Part shown: one piece after another, positions 1 through 6,873 of the stretch
How the letters are laid out: each line of letters opens with the position of its first letter
Position numbering within the stretch: position 1 is the first letter of the stretch
Origin: a virus
Taxonomy: Duplodnaviria; Heunggongvirae; Uroviricota; Caudoviricetes
DNA length: 6,873 nt
Virus record (IMG/VR): IMGVR_UViG_2681813268_000014
Location: 1 to 6,873 of that record
Reading direction: 5' to 3' (one strand)
Notes under the pieces: generated by a model
What the model was told of the DNA's origin: nothing
Seen by the model: the letters and a program-made list of their open reading frames with translations, nothing else
The model's database searches: none
Program-made: the position numbers and the translations under genes

Positions 1-1
1 T

Positions 2-148
2 AGTATTAAGACTATCACTTATTTAAGTGATACTGGTTGTCTGGAGATTCAGGGGGCCAGTCTACGGACATTTTCTGCCTGTGGACCAGGAAAGTGCACG
101 GGTGCTTTCCACTCCCATGAAGCCCGGCAATCCGCGCAGATACAGTAA
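2..148 (+). CDS. 3'-terminal fragment of an upstream phage gene (5' end outside window); function unknown
   Basis: Frame 2 is open from the window edge to TAA at 146-148 (...SACGPGKCTGAFHSHEARQSAQIQ*). Same orientation as and 36 bp upstream of the rusA-Q operon. Absent from the ORF track because it has no in-window start. Confidence 0.3.
   Translation, partial: SIKTITYLSDTGCLEIQGASLRTFSACGPGKCTGAFHSHEARQSAQIQ
13..32. repeat. Perfect 9-bp inverted repeat TATCACTTA-tt-TAAGTGATA (possible protein-binding palindrome)
   Basis: Read directly from sequence; the arms are exact reverse complements with a 2-bp spacer. The TATCAC half-site resembles lambdoid operator half-sites. Lies inside the putative upstream coding fragment. 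Confidence 0.35.
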
Positions 149-184
149 TAAACGAACTGACAGCAGTAAGATGGAGCGTTTCTT

Positions 185-442
185 TTGAACAACCAGACAA
201 TGACTTTTACCCCTGAACAATTGCGTAAACACGCGCAGGAAATGCTGCGTCATGCTGAACAACTCGAAAAAACGGGCATAACAAAAGACGCTATCCGTAA
301 AGATATGGTACCCGCGCTTCGGGAACTGATGCAGGCGAAGCATCGCGCACAGAAAGCAGTAGATGAGCTGGTGGACTGTGTGGCAGAGCTGGAAACCAGA
401 GTCGGAAAGTTTGAAAAACTGGTGCAGGAGGTGCTGCGCTGA
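185..442 (+). CDS. Hypothetical small phage protein (85 aa, charged, helix-rich), first gene of the rusA-Q operon
   Basis: ORF 185..442 with TTG start and GGAG 7 nt upstream (alternative ATG at 200). Stop TGA overlaps the rusA ATG (ATGA at 442-445 region), indicating translational coupling. Confidence 0.55.
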   Translation: MNNQTMTFTPEQLRKHAQEMLRHAEQLEKTGITKDAIRKDMVPALRELMQAKHRAQKAVDELVDCVAELETRVGKFEKLVQEVLR

Positions 443-816
443 TGCGCCATGAGTTTATTTTACCTTATCCGCCGACGGTGAATACTTACTGGCGACGTCG
501 TGACAACACATATTTTGTATCAAAAGCCGGTGAGCGTTATCGCCGGGATGTGGCGCTTATTGTCCGTCAGCAGCGACTGAAATTAAGCCTGTCCGGAAGA
601 CTGGCGATAAAGATTATTGCAGAGCCACCGGATAAGCGCCGTCGTGACCTGGACAATATCCTGAAAGCACCACTGGATGCACTGACACATGCGGGAGTGT
701 TAATGGACGATGAGCAGTTTGATGAAATCAATATCGTTCGTGGTCAGCCAGTATCTGGTGGACGTCTGGGGGTGAAGATTTACCCCATAATGCATGAAGA
801 GCAGGTCAAAAAATGA
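442..816 (+). CDS. rusA: RusA-family crossover junction endodeoxyribonuclease (Holliday junction resolvase)
   Basis: 124-aa product with the RusA signatures LPYPPTVNTYWRRR and DKRRRDLDNILKAPLDALTHAGVLMDDEQ, closely matching E. coli RusA (LPWPPSNNRYYR ... [27 protein letters not shown]) as recalled from memory. Conserved lambdoid position just upstream of Q. Confidence 0.9.
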   Translation: MRHEFILPYPPTVNTYWRRRDNTYFVSKAGERYRRDVALIVRQQRLKLSLSGRLAIKIIAEPPDKRRRDLDNILKAPLDALTHAGVLMDDEQFDEINIVRGQPVSGGRLGVKIYPIMHEEQVKK

Positions 817-1667
817 AACTGGAAGATTTACCGAAATACTACTCCCCAAAATCCCCTTGCCTGACCGATGCATCGGCCTCAACGTCAAAAGATGCGCTGA
901 GTATCACTGATGTGATGGCCGCGCAGGGCATGACACAGAATCGGGCTGAGATGGGGTTTTCTGCGTTCCTGGGGAAAATGGGCATCAGTATGAATGACAG
1001 GGCGCGGGCAACAGAATTACTGGCAGATTATGCACTCAGTCGGTGCGATCGTGTGGCGGCGTTGAGAAAACTTCCGGCAGAAATAAAACCGGTAGTGATG
1101 CGCATTATGGCTTCGTACGCTTTTGAGGATTATGCCCGCAGCGCAGCGAGTAAAAAGCAGTGCCCTTGTTGCTATGGGGAAAAATTTATTGAAAGCGTAG
1201 TTTTTACAAACAAGGTCCAGTATCCGGATGGTAAGCCGCCGGTATGGGCAAAGTGTACGAAAGGTGTGTATCCGTCTTACTGGGAAGAATGGAAAAAAGT
1301 CAGGGAGGTGGTAAAAGTTGCCTGTCCGGAGTGTGGCGGAAAGGGTGAGGTTTCCACCGCCTGTAAGGATTGCCGTGGGCGTGGTGTCGCCATTCATCGT
1401 GAAGAGTCGGTAAAACGTGGTATGCCTGTTATCAGAGACTGCCAGCGTTGTGGTGGTCGTGGCTATGAAAGACTACCATCAACGGAGGCATTTAATGCTA
1501 TATGCGAGGTGACAAACCAGATAACACGCGCGTCATGGGAAAAAACAGTTAAGAAATTCTATGATGCGCTGGTGACTCGGTTTGATATTGAAGAAGCATG
1601 GGCTGAGCGGCAGTTAAAAAAGGTAACTAGGTTGATTTTTCCGGAATCTGTGGTAAATTCGTCATAA
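813..1667 (+). CDS. Late-gene antitermination protein Q-like, large zinc-finger variant
   Basis: 284-aa ORF whose ATG overlaps the rusA stop (ATGA). Contains three DnaJ-like CxxCxGxG motifs (CPECGGKG, CKDCRGRG, CQRCGGRG) plus additional CxxC. Position between rusA and the pR'/tR'/tRNA block is the canonical Q position; family assignment rests on synteny and motifs, not a homology search. Confidence 0.65.
   Translation: MKLEDLPKYYSPKSPCLTDASASTSKDALSITDVMAAQGMTQNRAEMGFSAFLGKMGISMNDRARATELLADYALSRCDRVAALRKLPAEIKPVVMRIMASYAFEDYARSAASKKQCPCCYGEKFIESVVFTNKVQYPDGKPPVWAKCTKGVYPSYWEEWKKVREVVKVACPECGGKGEVSTACKDCRGRGVAIHREESVKRGMPVIRDCQRCGGRGYERLPSTEAFNAICEVTNQITRASWEKTVKKFYDALVTRFDIEEAWAERQLKKVTRLIFPESVVNSS
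1632..1659 (+). promoter_or_regulatory. Candidate late promoter pR' (-35 TTGATT, 16-bp spacer, -10 TAAATT) overlapping the 3' end of Q
   Basis: Sigma70-like hexamers read from sequence, predicted start near 1666-1668. Placement directly after Q and before an intrinsic terminator matches lambdoid pR'/qut architecture. Confidence 0.4.
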
Positions 1668-1731
1668 CTATGGGCGTTTTATGCCTGACGTTAGAAGAGT
1701 TTCTACAACCCGCCGCCGAGCGGGTTTTTTA
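1667..1731 (+). ncRNA. Short pR'-to-tR' terminated transcript (6S-like/StxS-like late leader RNA), predicted ~65 nt
   Basis: Inferred from the predicted pR' start and the intrinsic terminator at 1708-1733. Early-terminated pR' transcripts are known sRNAs in lambdoid and Stx phages. Ends not mapped. Confidence 0.3.
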
Positions 1732-1733
1732 TT
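1708..1733 (+). terminator. Rho-independent terminator tR' (stem ACCCGC/GCGGGT, 6-nt loop, T6 tract)
   Basis: GC-rich hairpin aACCCGCcgccgaGCGGGT followed by TTTTTTATT, read directly from sequence, ~45 bp downstream of the Q stop. Confidence 0.65.
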
Positions 1734-1769
1734 GCGGAATTAATTACGGACCGTTATTATTCTGCTCCC

Positions 1770-1845
1770 GGCCCTTTAGCTCAGTGGTGAGAGCGAGCGA
1801 CTCATAATCGCCAGGTCGCTGGTTCAAATCCAGCAAGGGCCACCA
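1770..1845 (+). tRNA. ileZ: tRNA-Ile2 (anticodon CAU, lysidine-type, reads AUA); phage-borne ileZ-like
   Basis: 76-nt cloverleaf folded by hand: acceptor GGCCCTT/AAGGGCC, D-stem GCTC/GAGC, anticodon loop CTCATAA, T-arm GCTGG-TTCAAAT-CCAGC, discriminator A, encoded CCA. Near-identical in architecture to E. coli ileX, including the C4-G69/C5-G68 acceptor pairs. Confidence 0.88.
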
Positions 1846-1945
1846 TCACAAACCGCCATTAGCTTATCAGGAAGAGCAGACGACACGATAACAGGGTTGT
1901 TGGTGCGGGGGCGGGTCCCCGATGGCGGTCCATTATCGGTATTCA

Positions 1946-2022
1946 GCGTTGTTAGCTCAGCCGGACAGAGCAATTGCCTTCTAAGCAATCGGTCACTGGT
2001 TCGAATCCAGTACAGCGCGCCA
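1946..2022 (+). tRNA. tRNA-Arg (anticodon UCU, reads AGA); phage-borne argN/argO-like
   Basis: 77-nt cloverleaf folded by hand: acceptor GCGTTGT/ACAGCGC (one G-U pair), D-stem GCTC/GAGC, anticodon stem ATTGC/GCAAT with loop CTTCTAA, T-arm ACTGG-TTCGAAT-CCAGT, discriminator G, encoded CCA. Confidence 0.85.
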
Positions 2023-2132
2023 TATTCATTCTTCCAGATTCCTTCCGGCAGAGCCTTATACTGAAATATACCTGGCTCAGGATATTGTTGAAAATATTTT
2101 ATGTTTGTCAAAAATAAAAGTTCTGTTAAGTA

Positions 2133-2486
2133 TTGATTGAGTGTTTGTTATACGGTCTAATGGTTTTTTCAGCATTAAATATTTATCATTCATATGGTGT
2201 GGGTAGAGTGAATATTGATGAGGCGTCGGGGTGTTTCATCCTTAGGCAGCGTATTGATATAGTCAATGCAGCACGAGCAAAGGCCTTCAGCCGTTTGACA
2301 GTTTTGTTCTGTACTCCTGATCGTCTTTCGGGAAGAGACGTTATTATTCTGAATAGTGATGCTATACAGAGGGTTTGCGATGAGTTCATGGTTGCTAATT
2401 CAGAATTATTTGCTCTTGTTCAGGAGTACAACAGAATAGCCAGGACCTGTGGTATGGATGAACTTCGGATTACTCATCTGGGGTAG
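2133..2486 (+). CDS. Hypothetical cargo protein (117 aa from TTG, ~108 aa from ATG at 2160), no recognisable family
   Basis: Longest ORF in the segment immediately downstream of the phage tRNAs, in late-transcript orientation. No strong Shine-Dalgarno sequence; no motif I recognise. Confidence 0.4.
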   Translation: MIECLLYGLMVFSALNIYHSYGVGRVNIDEASGCFILRQRIDIVNAARAKAFSRLTVLFCTPDRLSGRDVIILNSDAIQRVCDEFMVANSELFALVQEYNRIARTCGMDELRITHLG

Positions 2487-2589
2487 ATACATATCTGGAT
2501 TATCACCTGTTACGGTAAAAAGTGATTGCTTACTGTTTTTGTGAATGGCATTGCAGCAGCCGGATAATGTCAGTGCTGGCTGACGGTGT

Positions 2590-2597
2590 GCTGGTGG
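2590..2597 (+). other. Chi site (5'-GCTGGTGG-3')
   Basis: Exact octamer match read from sequence; the only Chi octamer I found on the + strand of this window. Confidence 0.6.
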
Positions 2598-2689
2598 CGG
2601 GTGTGGTGGTTGTTGCTTTCCCGTTGCTGAAAAAGAAAACGCCAGACTGTTAGCCGGGTATCAGTTAGCGGGAGAAATTTTTAAATACT

Positions 2690-2976
2690 TCACAATTCAG
2701 GCGGTTGACTGTTGTCTGGTTTGCGGGGAGTTTGTTAAAAGAAACTGGCATGGTGAATCCCCCTGTGCGGAGGGGCAATCAGCGAGTAGGTATATGGGAT
2801 AATCGCGGATTCAGGTGCTGGTACTGAATTCACCGGGAGGCACCCGGCATCATGCAATGGCACATAGCGCCACTCTCCAGCCCTCTCCGGAGGGGCTTTT
2901 CTGTGCCGGATACATCACAGTTTCTGGAACCTTAGGTACTACAGTATCAGTCAGGGTGCTATATTTTCAGATGTGA
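2690..2976 (+). repeat. Copy 1 of a duplicated structured element (candidate sRNA gene) ending in an intrinsic terminator
   Basis: 2690-2897 aligns to 4798-5006 with one substitution (T2850 vs C4958) and one 1-nt indel in a C-run. Homology resumes after a ~62-bp copy-1-specific insertion (2898-2959) through TATATT...TCAGATGTGA (to 2976). Nested hairpins are listed in the findings. Confidence 0.85.
2879..2902 (+). terminator. Intrinsic terminator at the 3' end of repeat copy 1 (AGCCCTC-tccg-GAGGGGCT + TTTTCT)
   Basis: GC-rich 7/8-bp hairpin with tetraloop followed by a U-tract on the + strand. Confidence 0.6.
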
Positions 2977-3129
2977 TGAAAGCCTGTCAGCAGGCAGGGC
3001 GTATCGGAAATGACCCAGTAGAGAAAACGTTGACTCAGATACCGGTGCTGAGTTACCGGGAAACCGGCATCACATGACCGCTATCCTGAGGTGTACTGGC
3101 AATAGCGGACACTACCATTTGTTCTTTTT

Positions 3130-3948
3130 TTAAGCAGCCATCTGATGATATTTTTCCCTGAAGGCTGCCGGGGAGATATTCCCCAGACGAGAGTGACGAC
3201 GCTGACGATTGTAGAAAATCTCAATGTATTCCCGTATTACTGAGATGGCTTCATCCCGGTTATTAAAACGATAGTGGCTCAGGCTCTCATTTTTCAGCGT
3301 TCCCCAGAAGCTTTCCATCGGAGCGTTGTCGTAACAGTTACCTTTACGCGACATTGATGTTTTCAGACCAGACTGCTCCTGTATGACCCGGTAATCGTAT
3401 GCGCAGTACTGTGAACCTCGATCAGAGTGGTGGATTAGCCCGGCAGGTGGGCGCTGGCTCCTGAGCGCCATAAACAGGGCTTTACCTGTCAGCTCTTTTG
3501 TCATGCGCTCTCCCATGGCGTAGCCGACAATTTCGCACGTATAAACATCTTTGATGCCAGCGAGGTACAACCATCCCTCCTGTGTGGCAACATACGTCAG
3601 GTCCGCCACCCAGACCTGATTTGGTGCTGTAGGAGCGAACGTCTGGTTCAGCAGATTTGGCGCAACTGGCAGATTGTGGTTCGAGTTCGTAGTCGCTCTG
3701 AACTTGCGTTTCTGCTTACAGCGTAGCCTTAGCTCCTTACGAAGACGTGCCAGTCGGTCACGACCAACGATGATGCCATTCTCTGCCAGCTCCGTCTGGA
3801 GCCGCCGGGTTCCATATGTTTCGCGAGTGCGGATATGTGCCACCTTAATCTCCAGTTTTAGCCGCTCATCACTTTGTTTTCTGTCTGAGGGTTCATGCTG
3901 TACCCAGTTGTAATAACCGCTCCTGGATACACCAAATACCTGACACAT
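3130..3948 (-). CDS. IS3-family transposase OrfB (DDE integrase-like catalytic domain), expressed as an OrfAB fusion by -1 frameshift
   Basis: 272-aa ORF from the first ATG; the same frame stays open upstream to the slippery site near 4029-4035. Contains characteristic IS3-family OrfB segments (HHSDRGSQY..., KGNCYDNAPMESFWGTLKNE). Confidence 0.9.
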   Translation of the reverse strand: MCQVFGVSRSGYYNWVQHEPSDRKQSDERLKLEIKVAHIRTRETYGTRRLQTELAENGIIVGRDRLARLRKELRLRCKQKRKFRATTNSNHNLPVAPNLLNQTFAPTAPNQVWVADLTYVATQEGWLYLAGIKDVYTCEIVGYAMGERMTKELTGKALFMALRSQRPPAGLIHHSDRGSQYCAYDYRVIQEQSGLKTSMSRKGNCYDNAPMESFWGTLKNESLSHYRFNNRDEAISVIREYIEIFYNRQRRHSRLGNISPAAFREKYHQMAA

Positions 3949-3983
3949 CGCTTCAATGGGAAATTGTTGTCGCCATTGTTCGA

Positions 3984-4286
3984 TTAACGCGTATTTTTCA
4001 GCGACTCCTGTGCAAAATACGCTGTTGCTTTTTTTAATATATCTCGCTCAAGTCGTGCTTCATTTAAAGCCTTACGCAGTTGCATAACTTCAGATTCCAG
4101 CTCAGCCACTGTGCGGGAGCCTGGTGTATTGAGCCCTTTTCTTGCGGCGGTAACCCATTGTCCTAAAGTGCCTTCAGGAAGAGATAATCGGGAAGCGCCT
4201 TCACTGATCGAAAGTTGATTTTCAGGAACCGTTTTGACGGCTTCGGCTTTAAACTCCGTAGAGTAACGTTGGGTTTTTCTGCTCAT
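3984..4286 (-). CDS. IS3-family transposase OrfA (helix-turn-helix / leucine-zipper DNA-binding protein)
   Basis: 100-aa ORF with AAGGAG Shine-Dalgarno 7 nt upstream of the ATG. Sequence MSRKTQRYSTEFKAEAV...LERDILKKATAYFAQESL is typical of IS3-group OrfA and closely matches what I recall of IS600 OrfA. Confidence 0.9.
   Translation of the reverse strand: MSRKTQRYSTEFKAEAVKTVPENQLSISEGASRLSLPEGTLGQWVTAARKGLNTPGSRTVAELESEVMQLRKALNEARLERDILKKATAYFAQESLKNTR
4029..4035 (-). other. Programmed -1 ribosomal frameshift site A_AAA_AAA linking orfA to orfB
   Basis: T7 run on the + strand equals A7 on the coding strand, positioned in the orfA zero frame as TTA-AAA-AAA-GCA (L-K-K-A). The orfB frame is exactly -1 relative to orfA (coordinate arithmetic from the stops at 3984 and 3130). 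Confidence 0.75.
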
Positions 4287-4797
4287 TATTGGCTCCTTCT
4301 GATGCCATTCTATTTCAGGAAGGAGTGTCCGTTAAACTCAGGCTACCTCACTCCCGTAAAGACGGGAGTCAAGTTCCCGCTCCGACATAACTGCGTGCAA
4401 TGGATTTTGAAGGAACCGTCAGCCCATTCCCCGGAGGCAAACATGGGCTGGCAAAAGTGTAGCGGTATTAGGCACAGCTATTTAGGAAAGAGGGACCATC
4501 TCCATCTCATTAAATGGACCACGCCAGACAATTCACTGTCATGCTGATGCTGCACTGTGGGGACAGAATCACTCATGATGACTTCGATAATCGACGACAT
4601 TATTATTTGGCCGAGCTTTTAGGTCATATCTCAAATCGTTTGCCTAATATTGCTCCATTTTTTAATAAAAAATCAATCATTTTTGAATCTTTGCTTTTCA
4701 TTGCATTGTCAAGCATAGTGTCCCCACTATTTGCTTTTTGAAATTTTTTGTTTACATCAACCAATCCATTATTGATAAAATATTCTAGCACTTTATA

Positions 4798-5032
4798 TCA
4801 CAATTCAGGCGGTTGACTGTTGTCTGGTTTGCGGGGAGTTTGTTAAAAGAAACTGGCATGGTGAATCCCCCTGTGCGGAGGGGCAATCAGCGAGTAGGTA
4901 TATGGGATAATCGCGGATTCAGGTGCTGGTACTGAATTCACCGGGAGGCACCCGGCACCATGCAATGGCACATAGCGCCACTCTCCAGCCCCTCTCCGGA
5001 GGGGCTGTTTATATTGATTTTGTCAGATGTGA
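4798..5032 (+). repeat. Copy 2 of the duplicated structured element (candidate sRNA gene) ending in an intrinsic terminator
   Basis: Aligns to copy 1 at ~99% identity over ~209 bp with a tail match (TATATT...AGATGTGA). A promoter-like TTGATA-N16-TATATC lies at 4772-4799, immediately upstream. Confidence 0.85.
4987..5015 (+). terminator. Intrinsic terminator at the 3' end of repeat copy 2 (AGCCCCTC-tccg-GAGGGGCT + GTTTATATT)
   Basis: Perfect 8-bp GC-rich hairpin with tetraloop followed by a T-rich tract, read from sequence. Confidence 0.55.
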
Positions 5033-5041
5033 GTAAACTCC

Positions 5042-5377
5042 TTATGGACTTTGTTGTTTTAGCCCATAAGGACATATTTGCAGAGTGCAACGGTTATTAA
5101 AGCATTCATTCAATACGTTATCTGTATTTGTAGGGCATTCCTGGCTGTTTTTGATTAAATTCCAGAATGTTTTATTGAATGGTACTACGTTGTAAATGGT
5201 TACAGGTAGCACTTTGTTATTGAGCATGATGCCTGTGTGAGTCAGTGTAAATATACTTTCAGGAGGTAAGAAAGCATCCGATTGATACCAGATTATTAAT
5301 TTTATTTTACTCCATATGACTGAAAAAGATATTCCGCATGATGGCTGGATAACTGTATCAATCACAATCCACTTCAT
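5042..5377 (-). CDS. Hypothetical Cys-rich small protein (111 aa) encoded antisense to the late operon in AT-rich cargo DNA
   Basis: ATG preceded by AAGGAA Shine-Dalgarno at 5-6 nt spacing (coding strand AAACAAGGAAACTAA-ATG). Six cysteines, six AUA codons. Ends 5 bp from the repeat-2 homology tail and 27 bp from its terminator. No family recognised. Confidence 0.4.
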
Positions 5378-5637
5378 TTAGTTTCCTTGTTTATGCCTTG
5401 CTGGTGATGTTCTGAAAAGTATAAATGATATTTTTGATTGTAAACCATAGAGCAGAATTATTTTTCTGATGTTGTTTATTGTTTATTTAAATGCAGGGTG
5501 GTTTATATCTCGTCTTGTAGTTTATCCATGCATATCTGCTTGATGATGAGGTTTTTATTTAAGGTATGGTTTTGTGTTTTTTCTGTATTACATGTCAGGT
5601 ATTTTAAAGAATCATTTTTCAGATGGTGGAAAGAACC

Positions 5638-6873
5638 ATGGCATTTAAACACTATGATGTTGTCAGGGCGGCGTCGCCGTCAGATCTTGCGGAAAAGCTG
5701 ACACATAAACTGAAAGAGGGCTGGCAGCCGTTTGGTAGTCCGGTGGCCATAACCCCTTATACCCTGATGCAGGCGATTGCAGCAGAAGGTGATGTGGTCG
5801 TCAGTGGTGCAACTGAGCCGGAGTGGTACTACGTCATCGTACTGGCCGGGCAGTCCAATGCCATGGCTTACGGTGAAGGGCTTCCGCTTCCGGATTCATA
5901 CGATGCGCCCCATCCGCGCATTAAGCAACTGGCCCGTCGTAACACAGTGACTCCCGGTGGTGAAGTATGCGTATTTAACGACATCATTCCTGCTGACCAT
6001 TGTCTGCATGATGTTCAGGATATGAGTACGATTAACCATCCCCGGGCTGACCTGAGCAAAGGGCAGTACGGCTGTGTCGGACAGGGCTTACATATTGCCA
6101 AAAAACTGCTTCCGTATATCCCTAATAATGCGGGGATCCTGCTGGTACCATGCTGTCGTGGTGGTTCGGCATTCACCCAGGGCACGGAGGGGACATTCAG
6201 CGAGTCCACGGGAGCCAGTCAGGATTCGGCTCGCTGGGGAGTGGGTAAGCCGTTATATCAGGATCTGCTTTTCCGCACGAAGGCAGCATTGCAGAAAAAC
6301 CCGAAAAACGTTTTGCTGGCGATATGCTGGATGCAGGGGGAATTCGATATGACGAATGCCAGTTACGCCCAGCAGCCAGCAGCATTTCTTGCAATGGTAC
6401 AGCAGTTCCGTGCTGACCTTGCCGGGCTGGCAGCGCAGTGTCACGGTGGAAGTCCGGCATCAGTCCCCTGGATTTGTGGCGACACGACATACGCGTGGAA
6501 ACAAGAACACGGTACGCAATATGAAGTGGTATATGGTGCATATAAAGGTAAAGAATCCCAGCAGATTTATTTTGTTCCCTTTATGACCGATGGTAGCGGA
6601 GTTAATACACCGACAAACAACCCGTCAGAAGATCCTGATATTGCCGGGTCTGGTTATTACGGTTCGGCATCCCGAACGAACAAAAACTGGGTATCATCAA
6701 ATCGCCCGACGCATTTCAGCTCATGGGCGCGTCGTGGCATTATTCCCGATCGTATGGCAACTGCTATTCTGAACGTAGCCGGTCGCACCTTAGCCTTCAT
6801 TAGTGGTAAGGCACCGGAAATCAAACCCTCGCCCGGCGGCGACACGCCATCGGGGCCGTCTGAAGATGCATCC
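5638..6873 (+). CDS. nanS-p: Prophage sialate O-acetylesterase (NanS-p-like; N-terminal DUF1737-like region plus SGNH/SASA esterase domain), 3' end beyond window
   Basis: Uninterrupted 412-codon frame from ATG 5638 to the window edge; missing from the ORF track because there is no in-window stop. Contains the esterase motif GQSNAMAYGEG. Occupies the conserved position between the stx/cargo slot and the lysis genes in Stx-type prophages. Confidence 0.82.
   Translation, partial: MAFKHYDVVRAASPSDLAEKLTHKLKEGWQPFGSPVAITPYTLMQAIAAEGDVVVSGATEPEWYYVIVLAGQSNAMAYGEGLPLPDSYDAPHPRIKQLARRNTVTPGGEVCVFNDIIPADHCLHDVQDMSTINHPRADLSKGQYGCVGQGLHIAKKLLPYIPNNAGILLVPCCRGGSAFTQGTEGTFSESTGASQDSARWGVGKPLYQDLLFRTKAALQKNPKNVLLAICWMQGEFDMTNASYAQQPAAFLAMVQQFRADLAGLAAQCHGGSPASVPWICGDTTYAWKQEHGTQYEVVYGAYKGKESQQIYFVPFMTDGSGVNTPTNNPSEDPDIAGSGYYGSASRTNKNWVSSNRPTHFSSWARRGIIPDRMATAILNVAGRTLAFISGKAPEIKPSPGGDTPSGPSEDAS

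Follow-up and report, generated by a model that had tools for sequence, protein, structure and literature searches.

What is the near-identical element that occurs twice, in direct orientation, on either side of an IS600 copy in this stretch of Caudoviricetes DNA (IMG/VR record IMGVR_UViG_2681813268_000014, positions 1 to 6,873; the whole 6,873-nt stretch is called the window below), and how did its two copies come to be apart? A sequence-only reading had proposed a duplicated phage sRNA gene that is structured, ends in a terminator and does not code for protein. Our analysis agrees and gives the RNA a name: the repeated element is two copies of STnc100, a known sRNA family already catalogued in prophages.

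Two STnc100 copies in a prophage late region

A repeat search of the window returns a 194-nt direct repeat (2690-2883 and 4798-4991, 99% identity), which pairwise alignment extends to 2690-2897 (copy A) and 4798-5006 (copy B), with similarity breaking off sharply at both edges. As had been read from the letters, the copies differ by a single substitution, T2855 of copy A being C in copy B, and by a 1-nt indel that makes the C-run in the stem of the terminator CCC in A and CCCC in B. Both match the Rfam model RF02076 (STnc100), copy A at 2719-2908 (122.5 bits, E 2.7e-27) and copy B at 4827-5016 (132.4 bits, E 7.5e-30), and given these E-values the resemblance is not due to chance. Family membership is defined as a covariance-model score of at least the gathering score, 47 bits, over the full model; both copies cover model positions 1-206 of 206 at 2.6-2.8 times that score, so that the covariance search suggested in the sequence-only reading comes out far above threshold.

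STnc100 is a gammaproteobacterial prophage sRNA, first listed in Salmonella, and its location in the late region of lambdoid prophages is also that of the window, where RusA, Q, tRNA-Ile2/Arg and DUF3927 lie upstream of the copies and IraM and the SASA esterase downstream. The proposed cargo slot between Q/tRNAs and nanS-p is thereby borne out by gene context. Copy B is 100% identical to the copy of phage Nil3 and to the single copy of many E. coli prophages, and represents the commonest sequence variant, which is carried by hundreds of E. coli genomes.

The absence of a conserved ORF likewise holds, since the small ORFs in the copies have no Pfam match and their C-termini diverge after the indel. 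A small-protein or dual-function gene, in which a GTG-initiated frame (2815-2976, 4923-5036) or another short ORF is translated, could be argued from EDL933, where some STnc100 copies have ribosome coverage >1 (RCV up to 3.2) and an SD-like 'tatgggata' is listed for one copy (PMC5331693); this motif occurs in the window at 2792-2800. However, near-identical EDL933 copies vary in ribosome coverage between 0.04 and 3.2 (PMC5331693), the relative PasD lacks a start codon at the equivalent place and has a stop codon there, and the family varies by compensatory pairs, indels and module swaps, not codon-wise. We find a coding role hardly credible.

Features of the two STnc100 copies and of the interval between them (window coordinates)
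Feature	Position	Strand	Basis
Direct repeat copy A: STnc100 gene and promoter region	2690..2897	+	repeat search, alignment, Rfam
Putative sigma-70 promoter of copy A	2712..2741	+	homology to PasD2 promoter
Predicted transcript of copy A, ~156 nt, with a 5' domain of five helices, a linker and a weakened terminator	2748..~2903	+	fold and PasD2 homology
Third, diverged STnc100-family unit (x), terminator removed by IS600	2925..3087	+	weak Rfam match, homologue fold
IS600 (IS3 family)	3087..4350	-	terminal inverted repeats 3087-3113 / 4324-4350
IS600 transposase ORFs	3130-3948, 3984-4286	-	ORF list
Invasion-plasmid fragment: 3' end of T3SS effector gene ospC4 and flank adjoining IS600	4351..4797	-	pINV identity
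Direct repeat copy B: STnc100 gene and core promoter	4798..5006	+	repeat search, alignment, Rfam
Predicted copy B transcript, ~156-157 nt: five-helix 5' domain, linker, terminator	4856..~5012	+	fold and PasD2 homology
Copy B P1	4856-4863/4956-4963	+	predicted fold
Copy B P2	4868-4872/4879-4883	+	predicted fold
Copy B P3	4890-4893/4911-4914	+	predicted fold
Copy B P4	4915-4922/4932-4939	+	predicted fold
Copy B P5	4941-4945/4951-4955	+	predicted fold
Copy B small hairpin	4966-4969/4977-4980	+	predicted fold
Copy B terminator	4986-4994/4999-5007	+	predicted fold

Predicted transcript and fold

The start of the RNA can be placed by homology to PasD2, whose RNA-seq-mapped 5' end is the G of GCAUGGUG and whose 3' end lies in the U-tract. 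By this analogy, the RNA of the window copies probably starts at GCAUGG (2748 and 4856). The proposed structured sRNA gene stands, while its predicted product is shortened from ~200 to ~156 nt. With the start at these positions, the first ~58 nt of each repeat would be promoter DNA, and the RF02076 model (206 positions), whose first position falls ~29 nt before the probable start, seems to take in promoter DNA as well.

The putative copy A promoter consists of a -35 TTGTCT (2712-2717), a 17-bp spacer ending in TG and a -10 TTAAAA/TAAAAG (2735-2741), and is modelled on the PasD2 promoter, TTGACT-17-TTAAAA, which lies 8 nt upstream of the RNA-seq 5' end. We note that PasD2, the reference for both start and promoter, has another promoter type than the window copies, and that a consensus promoter scan of the window did not call the copy A promoter or start proposed here. 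TTGACT (2705-2710) is an unlikely -35, being 24 nt from the -10; TTGTCT with its 17-nt spacing fits better. At the other end, terminator-like hairpins lie at 2879-2897 and 4986-5007, so that each copy does carry the hairpin read in it earlier, with a bulged stem in copy A.

For the predicted copy B transcript, the MFE and centroid structures coincide (-69.5 kcal/mol, z = -3.14) and form the Rfam-type junction. The STnc100 consensus fold, which comprises a closing helix around a CCCCU/AGGGG hairpin, a variable arm, a GGRUUCAG/CUGAAYUC helix and a CCGGG/CCCGG hairpin, followed by a terminator, is recovered in this structure. Copy A (MFE -56.8 kcal/mol) has the same 5' domain, and over its full length it does not fold better than shuffled sequences (z = -0.48) because the terminator is damaged: the missing C leaves a bulge in the terminator stem at 2879-2897. 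Its other change, C to U at 2855, turns a P1 G-C pair into G.U.

Comparison of 44 distinct 5' domains from phage contigs supports this fold. Paired cells amount to 94.5%, as against 37-47% with partners slid, and 39 cells are double changes compared with 15.4 in shuffles (0/500), an excess that is significant in P3 and P4; in the same set, P4 swaps GC<->AU and AU<->UA/GC. The pattern used to collect the homologues fixed the P1 5' arm and all of P2, which therefore could not vary on that side, and the informative parts are P3, P4 and the x unit only. The compensatory base changes that had been named as a check are thus present, in P3 and P4 of the phage-contig homologues.

These results revise the helices proposed from the letters in two respects: (I) the set was incomplete, as the 8-bp closing helix P1, GCAUGGUG/CACCAUGC, had been missed, and (II) the TGAATCC/GGATTCA helix is displaced by P4, in which GGAUUCA pairs downstream with CUGAAUUC and which has the compensatory changes. 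TGAATCC/GGATTCA is 94.7% pairable, but it cannot form together with P1 and P4, and neither the x unit nor L186-type members can form it. This pairing may exist as a minor alternative conformer. A tRNA-like reading of the cloverleaf-shaped 5' domain was also rejected, as ARAGORN and the Rfam tRNA/tmRNA models find two true tRNAs only.

The interval between the copies

IS600 does lie between the copies, as the sequence-only reading had it. The interval also contains the x unit and the ospC4 fragment, and a simple duplication around an IS gives way to a composite block. The x unit is a weak STnc100 match (2947-3135, 21.8 bits, below the gathering score of 47). Its intact homologue, at L003 4072-4224, scores 30.1 bits and has the same P1-P5 junction and a terminator; it differs from the copies in the sequence of every helix, with P1, P2, P4 and P5 kept.

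The insertion sequence takes its name from homologous copies, which PGAP names IS600. The segment 4340-4797, which includes the 447 bp at 4351-4797, is 100% identical to pINV-type plasmids of Shigella/EIEC, and the ORF at 4624-4791 (minus strand) has a Pfam Shigella_OspC match (8.2e-26). IS600 and ospC4 are contiguous on S. sonnei pINV, too. At the IS600 ends (3087 and 4350) no shared target duplication is found, one flank being the x unit and the other the pINV ospC4 flank. The 208-bp repeats stand 190 and 447 bp from IS600. An IS600-flanked, composite-transposon-like duplication was rejected on both grounds, the missing target-site duplication at the IS ends and the repeats not adjoining the IS.

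The 2,108-bp block between the cassettes is made up of the third family unit on the downstream side, the IS600 by which this unit is truncated, and the fragment of ospC4. The block was produced by recombination, IS600-mediated as well as illegitimate, in what was probably a Shigella/EIEC host; the two copies are not the outcome of tandem gene duplication. In many E. coli, a single STnc100 copy occurs in the order DUF3927-STnc100-IraM-SASA, and copy A with the x unit is found at 99.5% identity in at least 672 genomes. The junction of the ospC4 fragment with copy B was not found in genome, viral or metagenome contigs, and among E. coli complete genomes and phage and plasmid records, none spans ≥80% of the region. 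The ospC4/IS600 block is a record of exchange between a prophage and a virulence plasmid.

This setting raises the question of whether copy A in particular, or both copies, are non-functional debris of prophage/IS rearrangement in a pseudogene-accumulating host. The two copy A changes are private, being absent from 245 fetched loci, and no E. coli complete genome has a 100% match to copy A. One of them weakens the terminator, the neighbouring x unit is truncated by IS600, and copy B has an effector-gene fragment next to it, in place of its sequence upstream of -58. Against decay, the P1 change from G-C to G.U recurs naturally in other members, the core promoter and 5' domain are intact in both copies, and copy B is the commonest variant unchanged. 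We therefore regard a relic as unlikely.

Mode of action and known relatives

We consider it highly probable that both copies are ordinary STnc100 'moron'-type sRNA cassettes, separated by an IS600/pINV rearrangement, whose RNA would act in trans in an Hfq-dependent manner. Each cassette, with a putative weak sigma-70 promoter of its own and an intrinsic terminator, would yield an RNA of ~156 nt. Its 5' end would be locked in the 8-bp closing helix P1 around the multi-helix junction P2-P5, and a short, mostly single-stranded linker would follow 3' of the junction, ahead of the terminator hairpin. The variable linker (AAUGGCACAUAGCGCCACUCUCC here) may be the seed for Hfq-dependent base-pairing in trans with target RNAs, and the conserved 5' domain may be a scaffold of protective or structural function.

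A trans-acting, Hfq-dependent base-pairing role is most likely because relatives are Hfq-bound (EcOnc27/sRNA103 and PasD1/PasD2) and PasD contacts fall in the 3' ~50 nt. For the window variant, whose linker is unlike those of both EcOnc27 and PasD, this role is suggested by analogy with EcOnc27 (Hfq-CRAC) and PasD (RIL-seq, Hfq-dependent stability). Across the family, 82 unique elements show 39 combinations of promoter type, P3 arm and 3' linker/terminator module, with at least seven such modules, a mosaic that fits a constant scaffold with exchangeable seeds.

More tentatively, and with considerable doubt, the STnc100/PasD superfamily as a whole may be a modular platform, in which a near-invariant five-helix scaffold, also that of the diverged x subfamily missed by the Rfam threshold, is joined to swappable promoters and at least seven 3' seed/terminator cassettes, and in which many members have a CRP-like site. 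This site, T[GT][TC][TA]A-N6-TCACA, is centred at -61.5 from the proposed start in many members; it is kept in copy A and has lost its left half in copy B at the ospC4 junction. In this respect, copies A and B would form a natural experiment on whether a prophage sRNA is under catabolite control.

The genomic position of the units lends itself to a different explanation, namely that the structured domain has its effect in the Q-antiterminated PR' transcript itself, for instance by signalling processing or stability or by serving nanS-p and the lysis genes as a leader, and that the short RNA is no more than a terminated by-product. In fact, the units sit within the Q-dependent late transcript, always sense-oriented between Q/tRNAs and nanS-p/lysis genes and often stacked in tandem ~470-480 bp apart, and in E2348/69 the esterase start codon lies 87 nt downstream of the end of PasD2. 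Yet every unit has retained a promoter-like region and a terminator of its own, and relatives appear as discrete bands that depend on Hfq and form RIL-seq chimeras with distant mRNAs (PMC8550237). Copy B, moreover, is followed by the convergent IraM (5042-5377, minus strand), which is not a gene to lead, and the free swapping of 3' modules fits seeds better than a fixed cis signal. A cis role is thus quite improbable.

About half of the complete E. coli genomes have STnc100, with as many as 12 places in one genome, and as the copies are a textbook match to a curated RNA family, they add no new kind of biology. Their value lies mainly in annotation, since PGAP either passes over such units or annotates a spurious antisense pseudogene in their place. 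One family member adjoins stx2, and its variants are statistically linked to HUS. The mosaic of constant scaffold and swappable 3' module, together with the cryptic third unit, could be of use to those who work on prophage sRNAs. In a scan of 596 Gb of genome contigs with the 16-mer GCATGGTGAATCCYCC, a pattern too short for that amount of sequence, the matches listed were all chance ones in unrelated phyla, and loci L006-L125 were ignored. The long 5' UTR of the cold-shock genes ydfK/ynaE of K-12 prophages was discarded as a candidate: the window contains nothing like those genes, and one paper lists STnc100 as an RNA that its non-pathogenic reference strain lacks.

AgvB and AsxR of EHEC prophages are Hfq-binding prophage sRNAs from the same cargo slot, and the sequence-only reading had pointed to them. 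Their Rfam models (RF02702, RF02703) give no match in the window at E<=1, and the copies resemble them in neither sequence nor structure. An anti-sRNA of this kind, a sponge that titrates a core-genome sRNA rather than regulating mRNAs, would suit the shared slot and the Sakai 'dyads' reported between the late promoter and the lysis genes, where the AsxR partner EcOnc27 is of STnc100 type (PMC7873438); EcOnc27 itself is reported as the AsxR neighbour in the dyad, not as an anti-sRNA, and AgvB and AsxR as dyad partners of STnc100-type RNAs rather than their homologues (PMC7873438). The 5' CACAA motif, once likened to GcvB targets, lies upstream of the likely start site, PasD relatives ligate mostly to mRNAs in RIL-seq (PMC8550237), and no target of that kind is known for any STnc100 member. 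A sponge is accordingly very unlikely.

Closer to the window copies is EcOnc27/sRNA103 of EHEC Stx2 phages, an STnc100-type unit in the same late-region slot that is reported as Hfq-bound and Northern-positive and overlaps STnc100 downstream of stx2B (PMC12711010; PMC7873438). Identity between the Stx2-phage copies and those of the window is only ~69-77%, and the 3' modules of the former are different ones; the window has no stx genes, and the reported fimZ and espA effects belong to the EcOnc27/sRNA103 variant, not to that of the window. In EDL933, 11 STnc100 copies are transcribed and one, STnc100_4, is Northern-positive (PMC5331693); its coordinates are given on NC_002655, and the CP008957 region is offset.

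PasD and STnc100 are structurally homologous (bioRxiv 10.64898/2026.05.13.724894), PasD stability is Hfq-dependent, and RIL-seq chimeras map to the PasD 3' end (PMC8550237). PasD1/PasD2 of EPEC E2348/69, which are EcOnc13 homologues, have in common with the window copies the 5' end (GCAUGGUGAAUCC...) and the helices P1, P2 and P4; they, too, lie between DUF3927 and the SASA esterase and are in general built of a structured 5' domain followed by a linker and a terminator. In contrast to the window copies, PasD is without the P5 hairpin, its promoter type has no TCACA box, and it has its own 3' module (seed UGUGAG, terminator GGCUGCGCAUUGCGCAGCC), whose pattern, TTCCTTGTGAGTTCTGGCTGCGCA, has 0 matches in the window at <=3 mismatches, which places the copies outside PasD. 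With STnc100 itself (RF02076), both copies have the helices, the terminator and the lambdoid late-region context in common, and there is no essential difference, copy A having the P1 G.U pair and the 1-nt terminator deletion.

The repeat and its place in the prophage

Repeat search and pairwise alignment recover two direct copies, A and B, differing by one substitution (T2855 in A, C in B) and by one C fewer in the terminal-hairpin C-run of A. Similarity between them ends abruptly on both sides, and each copy closes with a GC-rich hairpin followed by Ts. The repeat match, the sharp borders and the terminal hairpins exclude chance, and the near-identical, terminator-capped copies described by the sequence-only reading are therefore real. 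Searching the whole window with Rfam 15, the check proposed with that reading, matched both copies over the full length of RF02076 ("Gammaproteobacterial sRNA STnc100"), well over its gathering score of 47 bits. No other sRNA family matched the window, and the suggested link to AgvB and AsxR finds no support, as neither model gave a match at E<=1; it is beside this result that the rival reading of the copies as encoding an anti-sRNA sponge has to be placed. Judged by its sequence, the RNA left unnamed earlier is essentially certain to belong to STnc100, a curated and published family.

The element is thus already known. Phage Nil3 and many E. coli prophages carry copies identical to the variant in the window. 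Among 5,426 complete E. coli genomes, 2,718 contain the family, with a maximum of 12 places in one genome. What is new here is modest: corrected ends and fold, a cryptic third unit, a mosaic "scaffold plus seed" pattern, a possible CRP-type site and a prophage/virulence-plasmid rearrangement.

The window covers the late-regulatory and cargo genes of a lambdoid prophage; here the DUF3927 gene is followed by copy A, the interval, copy B, an IraM-like gene and nanS-p. Many E. coli prophages (for example the homologous locus L002) are arranged alike with one copy, DUF3927-STnc100-IraM-SASA, and PGAP leaves their STnc100 unit unannotated or under a spurious antisense pseudogene. As a prophage homologue of an RssB anti-adapter that adjoins an sRNA gene, the IraM-like gene may tie the cassette to RpoS control. 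We note that region 1667-1733 is where PR'/qut and a short leader RNA ending at tR' are expected, which in Stx phages is the position of StxS-type RNAs; Rfam gave only a sub-threshold Trp_leader match there.

Features of the window
Feature	Position	Strand	Remarks
RusA	442-815		
Q antiterminator	813-1666		
tR'-like strong intrinsic terminator	1707-1733		AACCCGCCGCCGAGCGGGTT + T6, just 3' of Q
tRNA-Met(CAT)	1770-1845		named tRNA-Ile by PGAP in homologues
tRNA-Arg(TCT)	1946-2022		
Unassigned ORF, 117 aa	2133-2486		between tRNA-Arg and DUF3927 gene; no Pfam match; without annotation in L002
DUF3927 gene	2522-2653		5' of copy A
Possible CRP-like site, copy A	2679-2694		
Copy A	2690-2897		terminal hairpin and Ts 2879-2897
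RF02076 match, copy A	2719-2908		122.5 bits, E 2.7e-27
x unit	2925-3087		21.8 bits
IS600	3087-4350		transposase ORFs on minus strand; 27-nt imperfect terminal repeats
pINV fragment	4351-4797		IS600-adjacent intergenic flank and 3' end of type III effector gene ospC4 (ORF 4624-4791, minus)
Copy B	4798-5006		terminal hairpin and Ts 4986-5007
Possible CRP-like site, copy B	4798-4802		right part only
RF02076 match, copy B	4827-5016		132.4 bits, E 7.5e-30
IraM-like anti-adapter gene	5042-5377	minus	111-aa ORF, converges on copy B; protein identical to WP_000871291.1 ("anti-adapter protein IraM" per PGAP); no Pfam match
nanS-p	from 5638		DUF1737/SASA esterase

Predicted transcript ends and promoter

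RNA-seq estimates for PasD2, an sRNA of EPEC E2348/69 (741157-741328), put its 5' end at the G of GCATGGTGAATCC and its 3' end within the U-tract of the terminator, with the promoter TTGACT-17 nt-TTAAAA 8 nt upstream of the RNA 5' end. The window copies share GCATGGTGAATCC and carry TTAAAA/TAAAAG 7 nt upstream of it, with TG directly before this element and TTGTCT at a spacing of 17 nt. From these shared elements we infer starts at 2748 (A) and 4856 (B) and ~156-nt transcripts; promoter DNA would make up the initial ~58 nt of each repeat. A generic promoter scan of the window did not call either promoter. Positions 1-29 of the RF02076 model (window 2719-2747 and 4827-4855) appear to cover the -35/-10 region UGUUAAAA, and since the model starts upstream of the mapped PasD2 5' end, STnc100 coordinates in Rfam and Bakta probably begin ~30 nt before the true 5' end.

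A pattern scan of IMG/VR, which also supplied the fold test, returned at least 119 phage contigs; those listed hold 82 unique 260-nt elements and 48 unique 5' domains. Among the matches listed (L126-L244), 51 of the 82 elements have a TCACA box at -58 from the inferred start, with a T[GT][TC][TA]A motif (TGTTA, TGTAA or TTTTA) 6 nt 5' of it; PasD-type promoters are without the box. Motif and box together resemble a possible CRP site centred at -61.5, the class I position, whose left half copy B has lost at the ospC4 junction.

Fold and family architecture

In copy B (4856-5012) the minimum-free-energy structure equals the centroid (-69.5 kcal/mol, z -3.14). In the predicted fold P1 (GCAUGGUG/CACCAUGC) closes a junction with P2 (CCCCU-GUGCGG-AGGGG), P3 (GCGA...UCGC), P4 (GGAUUCAG/CUGAAUUC) and P5 (CCGGG-AGGCA-CCCGG). 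The closed junction is followed by AA, a short hairpin (UGGC-ACAUAGC-GCCA), CUCUC and a terminator of 9 bp. The 5' domain of copy A folds in the same way, its C-to-U change turning one P1 pair into G.U, a variant natural in other family members too, and its missing C leaving a bulge in the terminator stem (-56.8 kcal/mol, z -0.48). Two rival readings, that the copies are a decaying relic and that they encode a small protein, are best considered beside these changes and the pairing kept across the family.

In a MAFFT alignment of 44 distinct listed domains, P1-P5 pairing reaches 94.5%, versus 37-47% with the 3' partners slid by 1-3 columns, and changes on both sides occupy 39 cells against 15.4 +/- 2.8 in shuffles (0/500). 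Covariation is concentrated in P4 and P3, with P4 pairs such as GC 24/AU 15 and AU 33/UA 5/GC 3. Because the search pattern fixed the P1 5' arm and all of P2, allowing no variation on that side, independent support was taken from the diverged x unit, whose helices are P1 AUGUGAUG/CAUCACAU, P2 GCCUG/CAGGC, P4 UGACUCAG/CUGAGUUA and P5 CCGG-GAAA-CCGG. Members of the L186 type strengthen the case, having a P4 wholly different in sequence, still fully paired.

The hairpins CCCCU/AGGGG, CCGGG/CCCGG and UGGC/GCCA and the terminator of the sequence-only reading are all correct in this fold. Its enclosing helix, UGAAUCC/GGAUUCA, is 94.7% pairable, in most members, but excludes P1 and P4 and is impossible in the x unit and L186; at best it would be a minor alternative conformer.

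Promoters of three types, a number of P3 arms and seven or more unrelated 3' linker/terminator modules, that of PasD included, are mixed in 39 different combinations among the 82 unique elements listed, with breakpoints at the conserved P1 strands. RIL-seq contacts of PasD fall within the last ~50 nt (PMC8550237). Mixing, breakpoints and contacts agree with a structured scaffold that stays constant while its 3' seed is exchanged. Tandem STnc100 pairs ~470-480 bp apart are common in the phage contigs listed. In many phages AAAAAAAGCCCGCGCTGGGAGACGCGGGC lies 3' of the STnc100 terminator (L003 4495-4560 and many L126-L244 loci), and its opposite strand matches the 3' end of the EPEC RIL-seq sRNA candidate E2348C_1409.E2348C_1408.IGR; this element, absent from the window, is probably a convergent partner in EHEC-type sRNA "dyads".

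The interval between the copies and the probable mode of action

The copies had been described as bracketing IS600; IS600 does lie between them, together with the x unit and an ospC4 fragment. Hundreds of E. coli prophages carry stretch 2898-3088 at 100% identity, 3' of an STnc100 unit, and copy A plus this stretch is found at 99.5% identity in at least 672 genomes, the only differences being copy A's two private changes. In E. coli ATCC 11775 (L003) the intact order is tRNA-Arg, STnc100 (136 bits), a weak match (30.1 bits, 4072-4224) and STnc100 (161 bits). The weak match is a diverged, cryptic third unit of the family, x, scoring under the Rfam threshold both there and in the window. It too begins with the TCACA box, and when intact it folds (-54.9 kcal/mol, z -2.65) into the STnc100 layout of closing helix, inner helices (three or four), linker and terminator; every helix differs in sequence from STnc100, the fold being kept by compensatory changes. 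In the window, IS600 severs the unit directly 3' of the closing helix's 3' strand and removes the terminator, so that any transcript would enter IS600 antisense to the transposase genes.

On the other side of IS600, 4351-4797 is 100% identical to IS600-flanking DNA of Shigella/EIEC invasion plasmids, and the ospC4 fragment matches Pfam Shigella_OspC (8.2e-26). The two IS600 flanks are unrelated and without a shared target duplication, a sign that different IS600 copies recombined. The ospC4'/copy B joint (4797/4798) lacks microhomology, and searches of genome, viral and metagenome contig collections did not recover it. Were a circular molecule "unit - x' - IS600 - ospC4'" to recombine with a resident unit by one crossover, exactly the window structure would result, provided that this odd joint existed earlier. 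The host was probably Shigella or EIEC.

By analogy with relatives, STnc100 rather probably acts as an Hfq-dependent, trans-acting sRNA. Each copy would be transcribed on its own and capped by its terminator; the seed would be the linker between P1 and terminator, here AAUGGCACAUAGCGCCACUCUCC, with its CU-rich, anti-Shine-Dalgarno-like stretch, and the 5' domain, whose own 5' end is paired, would protect and shape the RNA. During lytic growth the copies' sequence also lies within the Q-antiterminated late transcript, the setting in which the rival reading of a cis-acting late-operon element belongs.

Published work describes the family and its relatives as follows. E. coli O157:H7 EDL933 has 11 STnc100 copies, all transcribed, with STnc100_4 confirmed by Northern blot (PMC5331693), and STnc100 has been detected in STEC outer-membrane vesicles (PMC12370729). 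In Stx2 phages a copy directly downstream of stx2B overlaps the Hfq-binding sRNA EcOnc27/sRNA103, whose overexpression raises fimZ and espA transcripts and whose sequence variants are among HUS-predicting features (PMC12711010; PMC7873438). The Hfq-dependent EPEC sRNAs PasD1 and PasD2 are structural homologues of STnc100, and their genes adjoin Q and a sialic-acid esterase gene (2026 preprint, 10.64898/2026.05.13.724894).
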